IMG/VR virus record: IMGVR_UViG_3300035696_000002 | DNA from: a virus | Lineage: Duplodnaviria > Heunggongvirae > Uroviricota > Caudoviricetes | Direction: 5' to 3' (one strand) | DNA: 64,000 nt | In this document: one piece after another, positions 788 through 6,523 of the stretch | Layout: each line of letters starts with the position of its first letter | Numbering within the stretch: position 1 is the first letter of the stretch | Made by a program: the position numbers and the translations under genes | Notes under the pieces: generated by a model | Seen by the model: the letters and a program-made list of their open reading frames with translations, nothing else | Databases searched by the model: none | Told to the model about the DNA's origin: nothing

Positions 788-1107
788 AGGTATTACTCCT
801 TTCCTTGCTTGCACTTACTGAGAAGCCGTATGAGGAATACAACGAGCTTCTTGAGAACATCAAAACCCAATTGGAGACCCCGCAGCGGGTCGCCTTATTC
901 GAGAAAACGCTGGCCGAGGAGCTACCGCTCACGACTGCCCGGCGTGCCTACAAGACGGCCATCCGGGTCGCCTGTGGGGAGAAAGACGTGCCTCGGGAAT
1001 TCCATGGGCACCCGGCCAAACACACCAAAGCGGTGAGTCCGGCCCGGCAGAAATGGATCGACACCAAGGGCTCGAAGAAAAAGACATCGCCAGTAATTCA
1101 AAAATAA
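784..1107 (+). CDS. hypothetical protein
   Basis: ORF track; GTGA overlap. Confidence 0.55.
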   Translation: MKVLLLSLLALTEKPYEEYNELLENIKTQLETPQRVALFEKTLAEELPLTTARRAYKTAIRVACGEKDVPREFHGHPAKHTKAVSPARQKWIDTKGSKKKTSPVIQK

Positions 1108-1177
1108 GTGATTTTCTGGTATCATATACCAGAGAGACTTTGACGGCCTGTACGGCCATCGAACAACATTTTGACAT

Positions 1178-1260
1178 TGGCGGCTATGCTGGTGCTTCCT
1201 TCTACATTCATGGATCGCCGGGGCAACCCGGCTCAAAACTAGCCACAGCGGTTTCCGCCA
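1178..1260 (+). ncRNA. structured RNA copy 1 (Y-RNA-like candidate)
   Basis: terminal stem TGGCGG/CCGCCA; inner stem GCTG/CAGC; CTTCCTTCT tract; GCAA-tetraloop hairpin GCCGGG-GCAA-CCCGGC; conserved with copy 2. Confidence 0.75.
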
Positions 1261-1261
1261 T

Positions 1262-1332
1262 AGATTCTGAGAGAGTCACGGTAAACTATCGGCCTAGCAG
1301 TGCGAAATAGGCTCGATCTCTCAAATCTTTTT
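1262..1332 (+). terminator. multibranch hairpin followed by T-run (terminator or third small RNA)
   Basis: AGATT.TGAGAGA/TCTCTCA.AATCT outer stem, two inner hairpins, TTTTT. Confidence 0.45.
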
Positions 1333-1333
1333 G

Positions 1334-1361
1334 TTGCAATTTTCTCAAAAATTGATACTAT
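1334..1361 (+). promoter_or_regulatory. sigma70-type promoter with extended -10
   Basis: TTGCAA-N16-TACTAT with TGn; predicted start about 1368, the first base of RNA copy 2. Confidence 0.6.
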
Positions 1362-1367
1362 GGAGAT

Positions 1368-1440
1368 TGGTCGGCTATGTTGGTGCTTCCTTCTACAAAT
1401 TCAACCATTGACTGAAACTAGCCCCAGCGATTTCCGACCA
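1368..1440 (+). ncRNA. structured RNA copy 2 (Y-RNA-like candidate / 5' leader)
   Basis: terminal stem TGGTCGG/CCGACCA (compensatory versus copy 1); same GGCTATGYTGGTGCTTCCTTCTAC and AAACTAGCCMCAGCGRTTTCCG blocks. Confidence 0.75.
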
Positions 1441-1448
1441 TAAAATTT

Positions 1449-3728
1449 ATGACACTCAACTCGATCCTTCTTCGCCGCACGAACAAGTTCCTCCTGCCGG
1501 AGCACAAGACCAAGACTGTGCTGCCGGGCGATGTCGTCGCCACGTTCAACCTGAACCTCCAGTCCTTGGGGTACACTCTGTCCTCGTCTGCCCTTAAGGC
1601 GGTGAAGCATCTCTCCCCGGATGCGGTGAAGTCTCTGTTCAAGGAAATCACTGCGACTCTGGCCGAGGCACGCGGCGTGAAGAACTACAAGCCGATGTAC
1701 CCGAACTTCCCCGAGCAGGTGATGGAAGCCACGGACGCCGAGTTGTATCTGAACGCGATCCTGCATTACTTCACCGTGTGGGTTGCCGATATCACTGGCT
1801 CCGGTGCAGATGCGGACTTCATCTATCTGCCGAAGTACACCAAGGAAAAGCGTGAGCCGCTGGACGAGAAGGTCAAGCTGACGGTTCTTAACATCGCCAA
1901 GGAAGACGAACTGGGCGTGCTGGCGACTCGCATCGCTACGTCCAACACGTCGCTCTCCGCGACCGATCAGGAAGAGTTGATCGCTCTCGTCGAGAGCGGT
2001 TGGTTCGATCTGTCCACGCAGATTCCGCAGAAGGAAAATCTCGCGATCATCACGGCGATCCTGATTGACAAGGTCGTCAAGGGCCGCAAGCTGCCGCTGT
2101 TGCAGTTGTTCCCGGACATTTTCGCACAGTTCAAGACGGCGACGGATGTACTGCGTCTGGCGACGGCCCTGTCTGGCGGCGACGTGTCTCTGGCTGCCGA
2201 TACTAAGTTCAAGTCTTTCAAGCGTTCGATCCGTCGTTCGCTGCTCCAGTTGCTCAATGAGGCTGGTTCCATCGAAGAGGATATGCTTCGCCATGCCAAC
2301 CGTTGGGTTGCCCTGAGCGAACGCCTGCATCCGGGCGAGTTCCACACGAAGTTCGACAAGGCGTACACCGCCTTCTGGAAGCTGCGTAATCAGTGGCGTC
2401 CGGGCGTCCCGAAGATTGAGACGTTCAACTCGAAGATCGAGGCCTTGGTTGGCGGCAACGCTGTCGAGACCCGTGAAGTAAACGTGCTCAAGGCTGTAGC
2501 TTTGCTGAGCAAGCGTCCGGGAGATTTTGCCCGCCGTCTTGACTCGCTGCTCCGCTTCAATCAGGCGAAGGGTACCCGTGTCGTTGAGGCCTTTGCGAAG
2601 GTTGCTGAGGAAGTGTCCACCCCGGTGCTGTTGCAGGTGATGGCTCACTTCAAGAACCGCAACAAGAACGACATGCGTGTCGTGTTCCCGAAGGGGAATC
2701 TGGCGAAGGTTCAGGCGATCTCTGGTCGTCGGGAAATTCTGCTGCACGAACTGACCTCGGCTGTTGTGAAGGTGGTCGAAGAGGCCCTGACGGCCCGCTT
2801 TGCTAAGCTGCCGAAGCTGGGCAAGGTGTACGTCGATCCGAAGCTGGCGGACTACCTCGTGCCGTTCTCGCAGCGGTCTGCCAACGCGGCACTCCGCACG
2901 CTGGTACGCGGTTCCCGCATTGAGTTCCCGGCAGACAAGAACACCATCCGCTTCTTCATCTGGTGGAAGAACATCGCTGCAAAGGATGCTCGTCACGAGA
3001 GCGAGGATTCGCCGTACTACGGCTACTCGGATGGTCGCGTTGACCTTGACCTGTCGTCCATCATGTACGATGAGAACTGGAAGCAGATGGAGTACATCAC
3101 GTACTACAACCTGCGTTCGGCTCACTACAAGGCCTGCCACAGCGGTGACATCACCACGGCACCGAAGGGTGCGTGTGAGTTCATCGACGTGGACATCCCG
3201 TCCATACTGAACTACGGTGGGCGTTATGTTGTCATGATGGTGAACAGCTTCACCGGGCAGAACTTCTCACAAATCCCGGAAGTTGCTGCTGGCTGGATGC
3301 TTCGCGAGAAGCCGCAGTCAGGGGAAATCTTCGAGCCGAAGACTGTGCTCGACAAGATCAACGTCACCAGCGAATCCAAGCAGGTGATGCCGATGGTTCT
3401 GGACTTGGTTGAGCGTAAGGTCATCTGGGCCGACGCTGCGATCAAGGCGAACGGCGGACGTTATGGCCGCATCTGGGGCAACAACGTCGCGAACAACTCT
3501 GATTCGATCTCGCTAATCGGTCAGGCGTTCACCAAGATCAAGAAGCCGAACCTTTACGAACTGTTCACCCTGCACGCCGCTTCGCGTGGTCGGCTGGTGG
3601 GCGATCCGACGAAGGCCGATGTTGTATTCTCGGTCGAGGCGGGTACACCGTTTGAGTTGGAGAAGATCGCGTCTGAGTTTATGCCCAACGCTAACGCAAA
3701 GGGCAAGGCGAAGGCCGCGAAGAAGTAG
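1449..3728 (+). CDS. large helical (ROT/TROVE-like) protein with C-terminal TerD domain
   Basis: TerD-like motifs VDLDLS, HSGDIT, EFIDVD, VNSFTGQ; N-terminal helical region with TATDVLR and RPGDFARRLDSLLR. Confidence 0.75.
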   Translation: MTLNSILLRRTNKFLLPEHKTKTVLPGDVVATFNLNLQSLGYTLSSSALKAVKHLSPDAVKSLFKEITATLAEARGVKNYKPMYPNFPEQVMEATDAELYLNAILHYFTVWVADITGSGADADFIYLPKYTKEKREPLDEKVKLTVLNIAKEDELGVLATRIATSNTSLSATDQEELIALVESGWFDLSTQIPQKENLAIITAILIDKVVKGRKLPLLQLFPDIFAQFKTATDVLRLATALSGGDVSLAADTKFKSFKRSIRRSLLQLLNEAGSIEEDMLRHANRWVALSERLHPGEFHTKFDKAYTAFWKLRNQWRPGVPKIETFNSKIEALVGGNAVETREVNVLKAVALLSKRPGDFARRLDSLLRFNQAKGTRVVEAFAKVAEEVSTPVLLQVMAHFKNRNKNDMRVVFPKGNLAKVQAISGRREILLHELTSAVVKVVEEALTARFAKLPKLGKVYVDPKLADYLVPFSQRSANAALRTLVRGSRIEFPADKNTIRFFIWWKNIAAKDARHESEDSPYYGYSDGRVDLDLSSIMYDENWKQMEYITYYNLRSAHYKACHSGDITTAPKGACEFIDVDIPSILNYGGRYVVMMVNSFTGQNFSQIPEVAAGWMLREKPQSGEIFEPKTVLDKINVTSESKQVMPMVLDLVERKVIWADAAIKANGGRYGRIWGNNVANNSDSISLIGQAFTKIKKPNLYELFTLHAASRGRLVGDPTKADVVFSVEAGTPFELEKIASEFMPNANAKGKAKAAKK

Positions 3729-3916
3729 TGCCAAAGAAAAAGAAAACTCGCTACTACCACTACGCCATCATCTGTCCGTATCCAGAGATCGGGCAGGTGG
3801 GCTGTGGCTGGGCGAGTTCTCTGAAAGAAATGATCGGCCAGTTGGAAGACAAGTGCGACACGGCAAAGCGTATGCTGGTTCGTGATTGCCCTGTCTGTAA
3901 GGAAAGCAACCGATGA
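3728..3916 (+). CDS. hypothetical protein
   Basis: ORF track; coupled. Confidence 0.5.
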   Translation: MPKKKKTRYYHYAIICPYPEIGQVGCGWASSLKEMIGQLEDKCDTAKRMLVRDCPVCKESNR

Positions 3917-4359
3917 TTTTCGAAGTAATCAATCCGAGCGACCCTGTTGTTTTCGAGACGGAGAATTTCGAGGCAGCAGCGGTCGCTTGTGTTATAGTGG
4001 GCGAAGGCCGCTATGGCTTGCAGGGCACCGTCAATGACATCCGATGGGAAGTTCCCCTGTTTCTGTTTGGTGGTTCTGACGAGTGGTTCACGGCTTCTTT
4101 CGGCCATGACCTGCAAACGTCGGTAGCCAAATTCATGGACACTCCCGAGGGCCGGGCCGAACTGGCGACCGTGCTAGAGTCTTTCATGATCGGCAAGGAA
4201 GAGGATTTGGTCAGCTACAAGAAGGCCTTGGAACTGATCCCTGCTGAGAAGCAGGCGGAATGGCGAGATCACTGGAAGGAACAACGCCGCTCCTCACTGA
4301 ACGACATTTGCGATTATGCTTGGCGTGTAGCCAAGAACCTACGTAAGAAGAAAGGGTAA
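3913..4359 (+). CDS. hypothetical protein
   Basis: ORF track; ATGA overlap. Confidence 0.7.
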   Translation: MIFEVINPSDPVVFETENFEAAAVACVIVGEGRYGLQGTVNDIRWEVPLFLFGGSDEWFTASFGHDLQTSVAKFMDTPEGRAELATVLESFMIGKEEDLVSYKKALELIPAEKQAEWRDHWKEQRRSSLNDICDYAWRVAKNLRKKKG

Positions 4360-4362
4360 GTC

Positions 4363-4605
4363 ATGGCTGTCATTACGCGAGGCAAACCCGGCGACTTGAA
4401 CTACGTCGAAGGGACATGCAAGGCAGTTAAGCGACGCATCAAGGGCCAGAAACATCCAATCGTTACGATCCGTGATGGAGTTGAAGGAACGGGCGTATCG
4501 CTACCTTTCACCTGTGGCTTTTGCAAGGACTCACTCGGACGGCCCACTGTGGCTTTCCGATCTCGGAAACAGAGGAATCAGCACACCAACTTCTGTCCGA
4601 AATAA
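4363..4605 (+). CDS. basic protein with C2H-type Zn motif
   Basis: CGFC...H...C. Confidence 0.55.
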   Translation: MAVITRGKPGDLNYVEGTCKAVKRRIKGQKHPIVTIRDGVEGTGVSLPFTCGFCKDSLGRPTVAFRSRKQRNQHTNFCPK

Positions 4606-4757
4606 CGACACCCCAGAGCGTTTTGGCATGGGACACTCTCCCCCGGATTTAAGCCGGGTAAGAGAAGATGCACGTGGCGATGCCACGGCTGATACCGCCG
4701 ACGTAATGGATAGGGGGGACTAAGGCCGCATGCAGCCGAAGTCCCCTCGGGCCTTTT
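4606..4757 (+). ncRNA. putative structured intergenic RNA
   Basis: hairpins CCCGG/CCGGG, CGTGGC-GAT-GCCACG, GGGGACT/AGTCCCC in a 150-nt gap. Confidence 0.4.
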
Positions 4758-5192
4758 ATGACCATCCGTATCGGCTTTACCGGGACGAACAAAGGAATGA
4801 CGCAGGGGCAGAGATTGCAGCTTGCCGCCCTGTTCACCGTGCTCAAGGCTGAATACGACGGGCACCTGATTGAGTTCCACCATGGGCTCTGCATCGGTGC
4901 CGACGAGCAGGCCGCGAAGCTGGCGAAGCAGTTTGGCTTCCGCGTTATCGCTCACCCCGGTTTCAACTCCCGCAAACCCAAAGACACGATGTTCCGTTCG
5001 GATTGGACTGGCAGCGACGAAACCCGCACAGCCGAGCCCTTCCTCAAGCGAGATCGTGGTATAGTGGATGAGACGATACGTATGATCGCTACCCCTCTTA
5101 CCCGCGAGGAACAAGTGCGGTCAGGAACATGGACAACAGTACGCTATGCTAGAAAACAGGGGAAACAGGTGGACGTTCTATATCCCGCATGA
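4758..5192 (+). CDS. SLOG/DprA-like nucleotide-binding protein
   Basis: IGFTG, HHGLCIGAD, RDRGIV, SGTWTTVRYA motifs. Confidence 0.7.
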   Translation: MTIRIGFTGTNKGMTQGQRLQLAALFTVLKAEYDGHLIEFHHGLCIGADEQAAKLAKQFGFRVIAHPGFNSRKPKDTMFRSDWTGSDETRTAEPFLKRDRGIVDETIRMIATPLTREEQVRSGTWTTVRYARKQGKQVDVLYPA

Positions 5193-5389
5193 AAGCTCTT
5201 TTCCAAAGTCGGTCTATGGGTTTAATTTCCTGCACGATAGTCGAAGGCCCGCGACTACTGACGCGGCCAGCCGACTGGCTGGTGTGGCAGGAGATGGTGA
5301 TGTATCGCATCAGATTCCAGAACAGCCACGGGAAGACTCACTGCGTGTGGGTAAACGCCAAGAGGGTGCGGACTGTTCCCTCTGCGTAA
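5189..5389 (+). CDS. hypothetical protein
   Basis: ATGA overlap. Confidence 0.5.
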   Translation: MKALFQSRSMGLISCTIVEGPRLLTRPADWLVWQEMVMYRIRFQNSHGKTHCVWVNAKRVRTVPSA

Positions 5390-5604
5390 TGGGAATTCCT
5401 GTTCGGACGAACAGCTACGTGCCTGCGGTGGTTCAGAAACAATTCCGGTTCCCGCGATCCAAGAAGAAACGCATTCAGAAAAAGTGGCGGAAGAACCCAA
5501 ACAACTGGCGGAACATGTCCGTTATCTGGTTGGTCTCGGACAAGATCACATCCGCTATTTGTGGTGGGTCACGTGATGTTTCGATACAAAGTGGTCGATT
5601 GTAA
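5389..5604 (+). CDS. small basic protein
   Basis: RFPRSKKKRIQKKW; TAATG coupling. Confidence 0.55.
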   Translation: MGIPVRTNSYVPAVVQKQFRFPRSKKKRIQKKWRKNPNNWRNMSVIWLVSDKITSAICGGSRDVSIQSGRL

Positions 5605-5644
5605 GAAACACGCTGAACGTGGCAAGAACCAGAATGACTGTCAT
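5555..5644 (-). CDS. 29-aa single-pass membrane peptide with His-rich tail (not in ORF track)
   Basis: MTVILVLATFSVFLTIDHFVSKHHVTHHK; GGAGG RBS at 5654-5650; sigma54 promoter upstream. Confidence 0.7.
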   Translation of the reverse strand: MTVILVLATFSVFLTIDHFVSKHHVTHHK

Positions 5645-5666
5645 AGAATCCTCCACAGTGAGTAAG

Positions 5667-5682
5667 GCAACTGGAGTGCCAA
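5667..5682 (-). promoter_or_regulatory. sigma-54 (-24/-12) promoter
   Basis: minus strand TTGGCAC-TCCAG-TTGC matches the TGGCAC-N5-TTGC consensus exactly. Confidence 0.75.
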
Positions 5683-5729
5683 ACTGCGGGGTAGTGATTG
5701 CTACAACTTAGCGAGTGAACAGAATCCCA

Positions 5730-5805
5730 TGTGTTGCGATCTGCAACTGGAAAATTACAACACCTGAATTGCTGGGATTTTCAGCGTGGAGAAACGCAAC
5801 ATGGG
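5730..5805. promoter_or_regulatory. putative enhancer (UAS) sites for a sigma54 activator
   Basis: palindrome GTTGC-GATCT-GCAAC plus half sites ACAACAC and GCAACAT, 50-125 nt upstream of the -24 box. Confidence 0.45.
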
Positions 5806-5815
5806 TTGTTGAAGA

Positions 5816-6523
5816 ATGCCTCAGAAAAAAGTCAAACTCGCGGCGGAAATCTACGCGAACTGCGGCGGGTGGTTCGCTGATCCCGATCTTGACCCGGCGA
5901 TGTTCAACAATCTCCCGGCGTGGCGACGGAAAGAAATACTAGAGTGCAAGCGAATCTTCCGGGAAATCCCCGGCGTCCAAGCTTACGAGATCATCGAGCC
6001 GGGTACGTGGAAGCCGTATCCGAACCAAAAGCTGGCCGCTGACTACTATCGGACTGAGGCCCTTGAGCCCGAGCCGAGCGATCTACCGGAGGTTCCCCCG
6101 AGCATCAAGTACACCGTCCCGAACGGTGTGCCGCTTCTGAACTTCCGCATGGATCGAGTCCTGTATACTGGGGACACAGAATTGCGTTCGGCCTTGGAGA
6201 TGCACGTGGCACTGCCTGCGGTGTCGAAGGCCTGCACGGTGAAGGGTGAAGGAATCGAACTCTTGCGGGAGAAGCCGTTGGATGGCGTCTATGCGTTCGT
6301 CTGGCGGATGGCGAGGTTCCAAGCCGGGCTCGATGCCAGCGTGCCTGTAACGGCGTTCTGGGACTTGGAGGACGGCATTCGCCTGCTGGGCGGGCCTCGG
6401 TATCCGGCGACCAAAGAGATCGCATTCCTCGAAAGCCGGGCCGGGGAACTTGCACGGTCGGTTGGTTTGAACAGATACGAAGCGGCCCAACGCTGGGGCC
6501 GGGCACTGGGAAGGACTCTATGA
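5816..6523 (+). CDS. hypothetical protein
   Basis: 235-aa ORF, divergent from the sigma54 unit. Confidence 0.7.
   Translation: MPQKKVKLAAEIYANCGGWFADPDLDPAMFNNLPAWRRKEILECKRIFREIPGVQAYEIIEPGTWKPYPNQKLAADYYRTEALEPEPSDLPEVPPSIKYTVPNGVPLLNFRMDRVLYTGDTELRSALEMHVALPAVSKACTVKGEGIELLREKPLDGVYAFVWRMARFQAGLDASVPVTAFWDLEDGIRLLGGPRYPATKEIAFLESRAGELARSVGLNRYEAAQRWGRALGRTL

Follow-up and report, generated by a model that had tools for sequence, protein, structure and literature searches.

The 64,000-nucleotide stretch of DNA analysed here (the window) belongs to a 463-kb uncultured phage from peat, and the genes in the region of interest all lie on the plus strand. The locus raises the question of how a minus-strand unit with a sigma-54-type promoter came to lie among them, and whether it is a gene that the phage maintains. 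To our knowledge, enhancer-dependent sigma-54 promoters are almost unknown in lytic phage genomes. Read directly from the sequence, the unit is a compact module at 5555-5810 (minus strand), set between plus-strand phage genes. Its parts are as follows:

5785..5801, minus strand: distal enhancer-type unit, TGTTGCGTTTCTCCACG, followed by CTGAAAA at 5784-5778
5747-5733, minus strand: proximal palindromic enhancer-type site, GTTGC-AGATC-GCAAC (minus reading GTTGCAGATCGCAAC; plus reading TGTTGCGATCTGCAAC, 5732-5747)
5681-5667, minus strand: sigma-54-type -24/-12 promoter, TGGCAC-N5-TTGC (TGGCAC 5681-5676, TTGC 5670-5667)
5645..5666, minus strand: 22-nt leader, with GGAGG at 5654-5650
5644..5555, minus strand: 29-codon ORF, MTVILVLATFSVFLTIDHFVSKHHVTHHK (ATG 5644-5642, TAG 5557-5555)

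The minus-strand TGGCAC-N5-TTGC, the GGAGG, the ATG at 5644 with its 29-aa ORF, the palindrome and the CAACA half sites had been pointed out in a sequence-only reading of this DNA, and direct reading confirms them. Other TGTTG/CAACA sites upstream lie at 5801-5795 (TGTTGCG), 5762-5757 and 5810-5806. The GG and GC doublets of the promoter are exactly ten bases apart, as expected of sigma-54 promoters, and its flanks are of the family type discussed below (GTT before, CTTA after). In the peptide, residues 2-19 make up one hydrophobic helix, and the tail is rich in His and Lys.

Transcription from sigma-54 promoters starts about 12 nt after the GC and needs rpoN and ATP hydrolysis by an activator. 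From the usual distance between -12 and +1, we infer a transcript start near 5655; the predicted transcript has about 11 nt ahead of the ATG, and a terminator after the ORF is absent. Rfam gave no match at E up to 1 between 4500 and 7000, and a tRNA scan of the whole window found none.

The exact core TGGCAC-N5-TTGC occurs once in the window. Since about 0.12 exact matches of the 10-base core are expected per 64 kb on both strands (128,000 positions / 4^10), the core by itself is not significant; one-mismatch cores number 6 in the window against 5.2 expected, and the phage genomes examined are not enriched in the sigma-54 core. A second exact core was found in the related phage genome G008 (G008:C1:169959-169973, which is L108 360-374) and attributed to chance, as it falls inside a clamp-loader-like AAA+ gene with the motif GTGKT. 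Judged from sequence comparison, the significance of the module rests on homology and not on the core motif.

The homology is with a large bacterial family. A degenerate pattern combining core, Shine-Dalgarno (SD) sequence and MTVILV had one match in JGI metagenomes, on a 332-kb contig (IMGVR_UViG_3300033405_000002, classed viral in IMG/VR) where the same promoter, SD and N-terminus stand ahead of a 214-aa PF01597 (GCV_H) protein. Window DNA is 76% identical to this locus (L010) over 79 nt. The GcvH-like family has more than 4,000 proteins of 205-225 aa, and a scan of one genome per species returned at least 538 genome stretches encoding a relative. All but one of the best 80 of these loci are titled Acidobacteriota/Terriglobia, and many are from peat and bog. 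Aligned by profile with T. thermophilus GcvH, the family has an invariant glycine in place of the lipoyl-lysine.

The sequence-only reading had proposed a resemblance between the peptide and the N-terminal anchor of GcvH-like proteins, and this is borne out. The peptide has 19 of 29 residues in common with the family member P0046. A profile of N-terminal residues 1-26, made from 68 Terriglobia GcvH-like proteins, matches the frame 5558-5707 (minus strand) at E 3.7e-13, the runner-up among 1,800 frames having E 1.2. Anchor positions 1-21 comprise eight invariant and six nearly invariant positions across the family; the peptide retains all the invariant residues (M1, T2, L5, L7, F13, L14, I16 and D17) and fits the family anchor consensus MTV.LVL.TF..FL.ID. 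A phmmer search with a 33-aa form against 1.84 billion representatives returned the peptide itself only; this is taken as a false negative, since the query is short and the database huge, and the profile was significant at the level of the window.

The homology reaches codon 25, and the stop follows four codons later. The window contains no GcvH body: tblastn of five full-length members matches residues 1-26 only (residues 2-31 for P0019, which has five extra starting residues). A body that is split or frameshifted further on was rejected, as this search of the window finds anchor residues only. The window ORF is thus best described as a derivative of the 5' end of the GcvH-like family and not as a family member, the GCV_H domain being absent.

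The family had also been proposed to stand under sigma-54 control in bacteria, and the Terriglobia loci agree. A promoter of the form GTTTGGCAYGGCGATTGCCTTTAG precedes the GcvH-like gene in 66 of 68 loci, with a leader of 51-82 nt between the -12 element and the ATG in these 66. A partly palindromic site with consensus cTGTTGCGATtTTCATCA lies upstream; counted from TGGCAC, its start is at -135 to -137 for 36 of the 41 sites. In Terriglobia loci L011-L090 a second unit, TGTTG...TTTCA, often lies 23 nt past this site, and in L058 the site is a perfect palindrome, TGATGCGATTCGCATCA.

RpoN is present in all four Terriglobia carrier genomes examined. At one locus (L026), the gene adjoins a peptidase M54, an NtrC-type sigma-54 activator and a histidine kinase. 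Among the best 80 loci, 6 have an activator signature (the GAFTGA motif) within 2-4.5 kb, and about 20 have an NrfD/4Fe-4S module beside the gene. The Terriglobia cassette comprises an NtrC-type activator, a sensor kinase, peptidase M54 and the NrfD/4Fe-4S module. The upstream site is a candidate operator for the NtrC-type activator of this cassette, and could serve to define that activator's regulon.

Two matrices were used to compare the window with these bacterial sites. On a 30-nt promoter matrix built from 66 Terriglobia promoters, whose own sites score 14.3-44.4 bits, the window site scores 17.6 bits, within the range of the bacterial sites; it is the top site of the window, and the runner-up scores 7.7. 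On an enhancer matrix built from 41 bacterial upstream sites, 5729-5749 is the best match in the 128-kb search space (18.3 bits, the next being 13.9) and 5804-5784 the third best (13.5 bits). By these ranks, both are candidate upstream sites for an enhancer-binding ATPase. The core of the proximal palindrome is identical to the site of Terriglobales locus L085.

The window module and the Terriglobia gene (compared at L040, L070, L085 and L026) have the same invariant anchor residues, the same -24/-12 flanks (GTTTGGCAY...TTGCCTTA) and similar upstream sites of the palindromic TGTTGCGA-T-TCGCAACA type. They differ in several respects. The window copy has no GcvH domain, and its leader is 22 nt, not 51-82 nt. 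Its upstream sites centre near -58 and -112, whereas the host site starts at -135/-137. It belongs to a phage genome, where the neighbouring genes run on the opposite strand.

The gene also has a phage-borne lineage. A scan of IMG/VR with the N-terminal pattern found eight contigs. Five distinct full-length genes of 205-214 aa, from other huge phages of peat and soil, carry PF01597 (L095/L099, on the 332-kb contig described above; L091/L106; L093/L105; L102/L103; and L100). On the 332-kb contig the neighbours are endonuclease VII, methylases and unknowns. More generally, the full-length phage genes, which lack the lysine and have their own sigma-54-type promoter, often adjoin homing endonucleases (GIY-YIG, LAGLIDADG, HNH); primase/DNA polymerase A is the other frequent neighbour. 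A full-length membrane GcvH-like auxiliary gene of huge phages appears to be undescribed.

The remaining phage-borne genes are anchor-only, and are found in four phages: the window phage (29 aa), G008 (IMGVR_UViG_3300032770_000001, 455.7 kb, rated 100% complete; 27 aa, locus L104), the phage of L110 (27 aa, found beside a primase homologue) and G006 (26 aa, locus L101). L104 and L101 came from the same IMG/VR scan. A sigma-54-type element precedes the gene in all phage-borne copies, and in every one the leader is 22-25 nt with a GGAG(G) SD.

The window module resembles the full-length phage genes in its promoter, its leader (22-23 nt in this comparison), its GGAGG-type SD, its proximal palindrome and a distal GTTG.GTTTC..ACGCTGAAAA block; it differs in being 29 codons long where those genes encode 205-214 aa with PF01597. 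The palindromes of phage loci L091 and L093 are near-identical to the proximal site of the window, and the spacing from palindrome to TGGCAC is 51 nt in the window and 52 nt in L091. The block GTTG.GTTTC.C.ACGCTGAAAA of the distal unit is common to the window and L093. Upstream regions of the window and L093 align with a local score of z 7.4, reached by none of 500 shuffles; the comparison with L104 gives z 4.4. The phages with full-length genes have no other gene in the sampled flanks in common with the window.

These comparisons bear on the earlier proposal that the phage captured a host promoter, enhancer and anchor. Capture of all three is supported, because promoter, palindrome and anchor are each homologous to the host locus. 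The immediate source is a different matter: since phage leaders are 22-25 nt and bacterial leaders 51-82 nt, the phage-borne lineage is likelier than a fresh capture from a host. By its leader and upstream sites, the window copy belongs to the phage lineage of the gene, which derives ultimately from Terriglobia.

Whether the shortened gene is maintained can be judged from the other anchor-only copies, whose architecture is the same as in the window, with 27, 27 and 26 codons instead of 29. G008 is syntenic with the window phage. The two have in common the 759-aa protein, at 56-60% identity, as well as SLOG, both small ORFs described below, the 235-aa gene, peptide deformylase and PNKP. Its mini-gene (L104) lies at 140.8-141.2 kb. 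Across 96 nt the window and L104 are 75% identical; for codons 1-19 the figure is 81%. The complete G008 genome contains no GCV_H domain, and the 27-aa gene therefore stands alone. The intact host-type domain expected of an auxiliary metabolic gene is likewise absent from the window.

L110 comes from a relative of G008, its primase being 64% identical in protein and in DNA, and the two mini-genes flank the primase/polA genes on the same side. Both have 27 codons and share the position of the stop; GGCAC...GTGCCTTA and GGAG are retained. Over codons 1-19, pS is 0.38 and pN 0.10 (omega 0.21, Fisher p 0.015). Between these two the eight codons of the tail vary freely, and the tail past codon 19 is poorly conserved between copies in general. 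Identical length and stop, together with this omega, indicate that truncation predates the split of L104 and L110 and that the short gene has been kept since. For this pair, the comparison indicates that the truncated form is maintained and is not a decaying relic. The sequence-only reading had named conservation in relatives as a check, and the ORF and promoter are indeed kept there, not decayed.

For the window copy, omega is 0.135 against L104, 0.146 against L110 and 0.24 against L101; all the omega comparisons span only 57-81 nt, so that the error is wide. The constraint seen between the window and the others could predate truncation if their common ancestor was full length. With a 6-nt indel, the last codons of the window ORF (GTG...AAA TAG) align with those of L104, which is a weak hint of a truncated ancestor common to both. 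L006 is 100% identical, and no close variant of the window copy is available from which to gauge constraint on it. The window phage's own primase/polA locus, sought for a second copy of the mini-gene, was not found. INPHARED phages gave no match, either by blastn or with the peptide in tblastn; a 46-mer of the module had no exact match in the searched IMG/VR collection; and an IMG/VR search for related loci with three window proteins returned no close relatives.

The genomic setting of the window copy differs from that of the L104/L110 locus. The mini-genes of G008, L110 and L101 are divergent from primase/DNA polymerase A genes, and their tails differ from that of the window ORF. The window copy is instead at a rearranged locus, about 1.9 kb downstream of the gene for the 759-aa protein, where G008 has a 76-aa gene. 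Automatic annotation called no gene in 5193-5815 (a 624-bp gap). The plus-strand genes around the module are the following:

5189..5389, plus strand: small gene, ATG overlapping the preceding stop (ATGA), translated homologue in G008
5389..5604, plus strand: 71-aa gene with the FRFPRSKKKRIQKKW motif, ATG overlapping the preceding stop (TAATG)
5816..6523, plus strand: 235-aa gene, starting 14 nt beyond the distal enhancer unit

The 71-aa product has homologues by tblastn in L001/L002 (E 2e-10) and in G008 (E 4e-15), and a conserved FRFPRSKK.RI.KKW motif was noted in it. From their homologues, both small genes missed by the automatic calls are to be regarded as real, and the actual plus-strand gap is 5605-5815. 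The 235-aa protein has homologues of 37-50% identity in relatives.

The homology of 5389..5604 to G008 ends at residue 57, about nt 5559, and the G008 orthologue is longer. This end coincides with the stop codon of the mini-ORF, and the last 14 or so codons of 5389..5604 are antisense to the module. L001, L005 and G008 have a gene of 76-77 aa (MDF.KLL...) at the module's place, which the window does not have. The end of homology and the missing gene together indicate that about 250 nt (5555-5810), inverted, have replaced the 3' third of 5389..5604 and the whole of the next gene. An insertion or deletion that happened by accident would leave the same loss.

Between the SLOG-like gene and the 235-aa gene lies a hot spot of rearrangement (compared over window 5190-5815, L107 4755-6700, L001 4900-6000 and L003 4830-6020), in which three or four small genes differ in order or presence in every relative; L003 has an unrelated 248-aa gene there. 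Two further observations concern L001. The 118-aa call at 4511-4867 (minus strand) is probably spurious, since the plus frame there matches the 80-aa protein of the window (4363..4605) at 62% identity. Upstream of the syntenic block, at 3027-4514 (plus strand), a 495-aa gene has a precomputed TROVE (Ro-like) Pfam match, which may bear on a proposed Ro/Y-RNA-like system at window 1178-3728.

Genes downstream of the mini-ORF and regulators in the phages were also considered. On the minus strand of the window, the region after the ORF overlaps conserved plus-strand genes and holds no co-directional gene, so that the arrangement of an operon leader is absent; L110 likewise has no co-directional gene after the ORF. 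In L104 and L101 a co-directional gene does follow (263 aa, 110 nt away, and 198 aa, 45 nt away, respectively). In L110, two tandem tRNA-Phe (GAA) genes at 928-1108 (plus strand), convergent with the mini-gene, end one base from its stop. Activator signatures (GAFTGA, Walker A) were absent from all six frames of the window. PF00158 gave only matches of 26-27 bits, in five phage records; these were rejected as activators and ascribed to generic AAA+ similarity, as a control search was positive in 14 of 14 genomes, archaea included.

Several explanations can be set against this evidence. Chance would have the core, the SD and a short hydrophobic ORF arise by accident in an AT-richer intergenic stretch. 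Exact cores are indeed expected at about 0.12 per 64 kb, one-mismatch cores are at chance level and a 5+5 palindrome is commonly met by accident; however, the peptide homology (E 3.7e-13) comes with matching promoter flanks and enhancer sites, and DNA identity to L010 and L104 is 75-76% over 79-96 nt. Coincidence is accordingly hardly credible, and it is almost certain, as far as homology can tell, that 5555-5810 is a host-derived homologous module. A more serious alternative, though an unlikely one, is that the module is a passive relic: the body of a phage-borne gcvH-like gene would have been deleted or recombined away, leaving a 5' end that is undecayed and useless but may still fire. This would suit a hot spot with a different gene order in the window, G008, L001 and L003, a neighbour whose 3' third is gone and whose last 14 codons are now antisense to the module, an ORF that stops four codons past the family homology as from a random junction, and a window copy with no close variant apart from the identical L006. 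It fits poorly with the anchor-only forms of four phages, whose end points differ by no more than three codons and which all have an intact promoter, SD and ATG, or with L104 and L110, which have had the same 27-codon length and a low omega since their split. Nor does the complete G008 have a full-length copy for its mini-gene to shadow, and joint retention of 9 of 10 core bases, the ATG and GGAG would, on a rough estimate, occur about once in 1,000 cases at some 40% neutral divergence.

Selection might instead act on DNA or RNA only, with the enhancer and promoter serving as a sink, which would draw the host activator off its own cassette as the phage genomes replicate, or as a host-signal promoter for downstream or antisense RNA, and the ORF as a translation start that is carried along. 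Two of the window's three best enhancer-matrix matches do lie within 135 nt of the promoter, the window transcript, lacking a terminator, would continue into 5389..5604 and the SLOG gene in antisense, and the genes that follow the mini-ORF in L104 and L101 could be the ones served. Against this, selection on a protein is indicated by the low omega of the helix codons (0.14-0.24) and by the constancy of ORF length, the window and L110 lack a gene to be driven, and a pure sink needs no SD, ATG or open frame; a purely regulatory role is distinctly improbable. Roles as an activator sink, or as a signal-dependent antisense or downstream promoter, are nevertheless possible, and could coexist with a role of the peptide. 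On balance, the explanation that best accounts for the locus overall would be a sigma-54 module of host origin yielding a maintained membrane peptide. By its likeness to the other anchor-only copies, the mini-gene is probably maintained and functional in the window phage.

If so, expression of the peptide would follow the state of the host. In a Terriglobia host (uncultured, and suggested by homology), RpoN holoenzyme would bind 5681-5667. The NtrC-type activator of the cassette would bind 5733-5747 and 5785-5801 and open the promoter while its kinase is active. The module would then be transcribed only when host RpoN and the cognate activator of the redox cassette are active. The RNA would start near 5655, with the SD at its extreme 5' end; this is presumably workable, because full-length phage copies are arranged alike.

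The predicted product is a single-pass membrane peptide, and its basic C-terminal tail suggests an N-out/C-in orientation. With the invariant face of the host anchor, the peptide might take the place of that anchor on a membrane partner, as a mimic or competitor. This role is favoured because the anchor is unusually invariant in the family and the phage peptide keeps that face; as a specific mechanism, it is put forward only tentatively. The roles suggested in the sequence-only reading, as a decoy, a dominant negative or a titration site for the activator, are likewise hypothetical.

A known parallel in mode of action is found in cyanophages, whose pstS and phoA are under the control of the host PhoR-PhoB two-component system through Pho boxes. 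In both cases a host-derived phage gene retains the sites of a host regulator, and expression follows, or in the window would follow, a host signal. The cyanophage genes differ in having sigma-70 promoters and full-length products, whereas the window has an enhancer-dependent sigma-54 promoter and a helix only. A literature search brought up no paper describing a membrane form of GcvH-like protein from Acidobacteria, nor any on comparable phage sigma-54 modules.

If the module fires, it would place a phage gene under a specific host two-component signal, with the predicted sites of the activator included. The module of about 250 bp could also be used as a ready-made reporter for the regulator of the cassette. 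It links giant soil phages to Terriglobia hosts, and such host links are scarce. A bolder picture, speculative and rather unlikely to hold in full, is that giant phages of peat Acidobacteria plug into a haem- or redox-sensing circuit of kinase, activator and sigma-54, whose enhancer and promoter they retain so that a phage gene would fire only in a particular redox state of the host, and that in some lineages the pared helix of 26-29 aa would act as a dominant-negative anchor mimic, uncoupling or hijacking an orphan NrfCD-type quinone module during infection. The recurrent and conserved cut-down to the anchor suggests that the host anchor helix is a specific interaction surface; this surface may offer a handle on a widespread host redox cassette.
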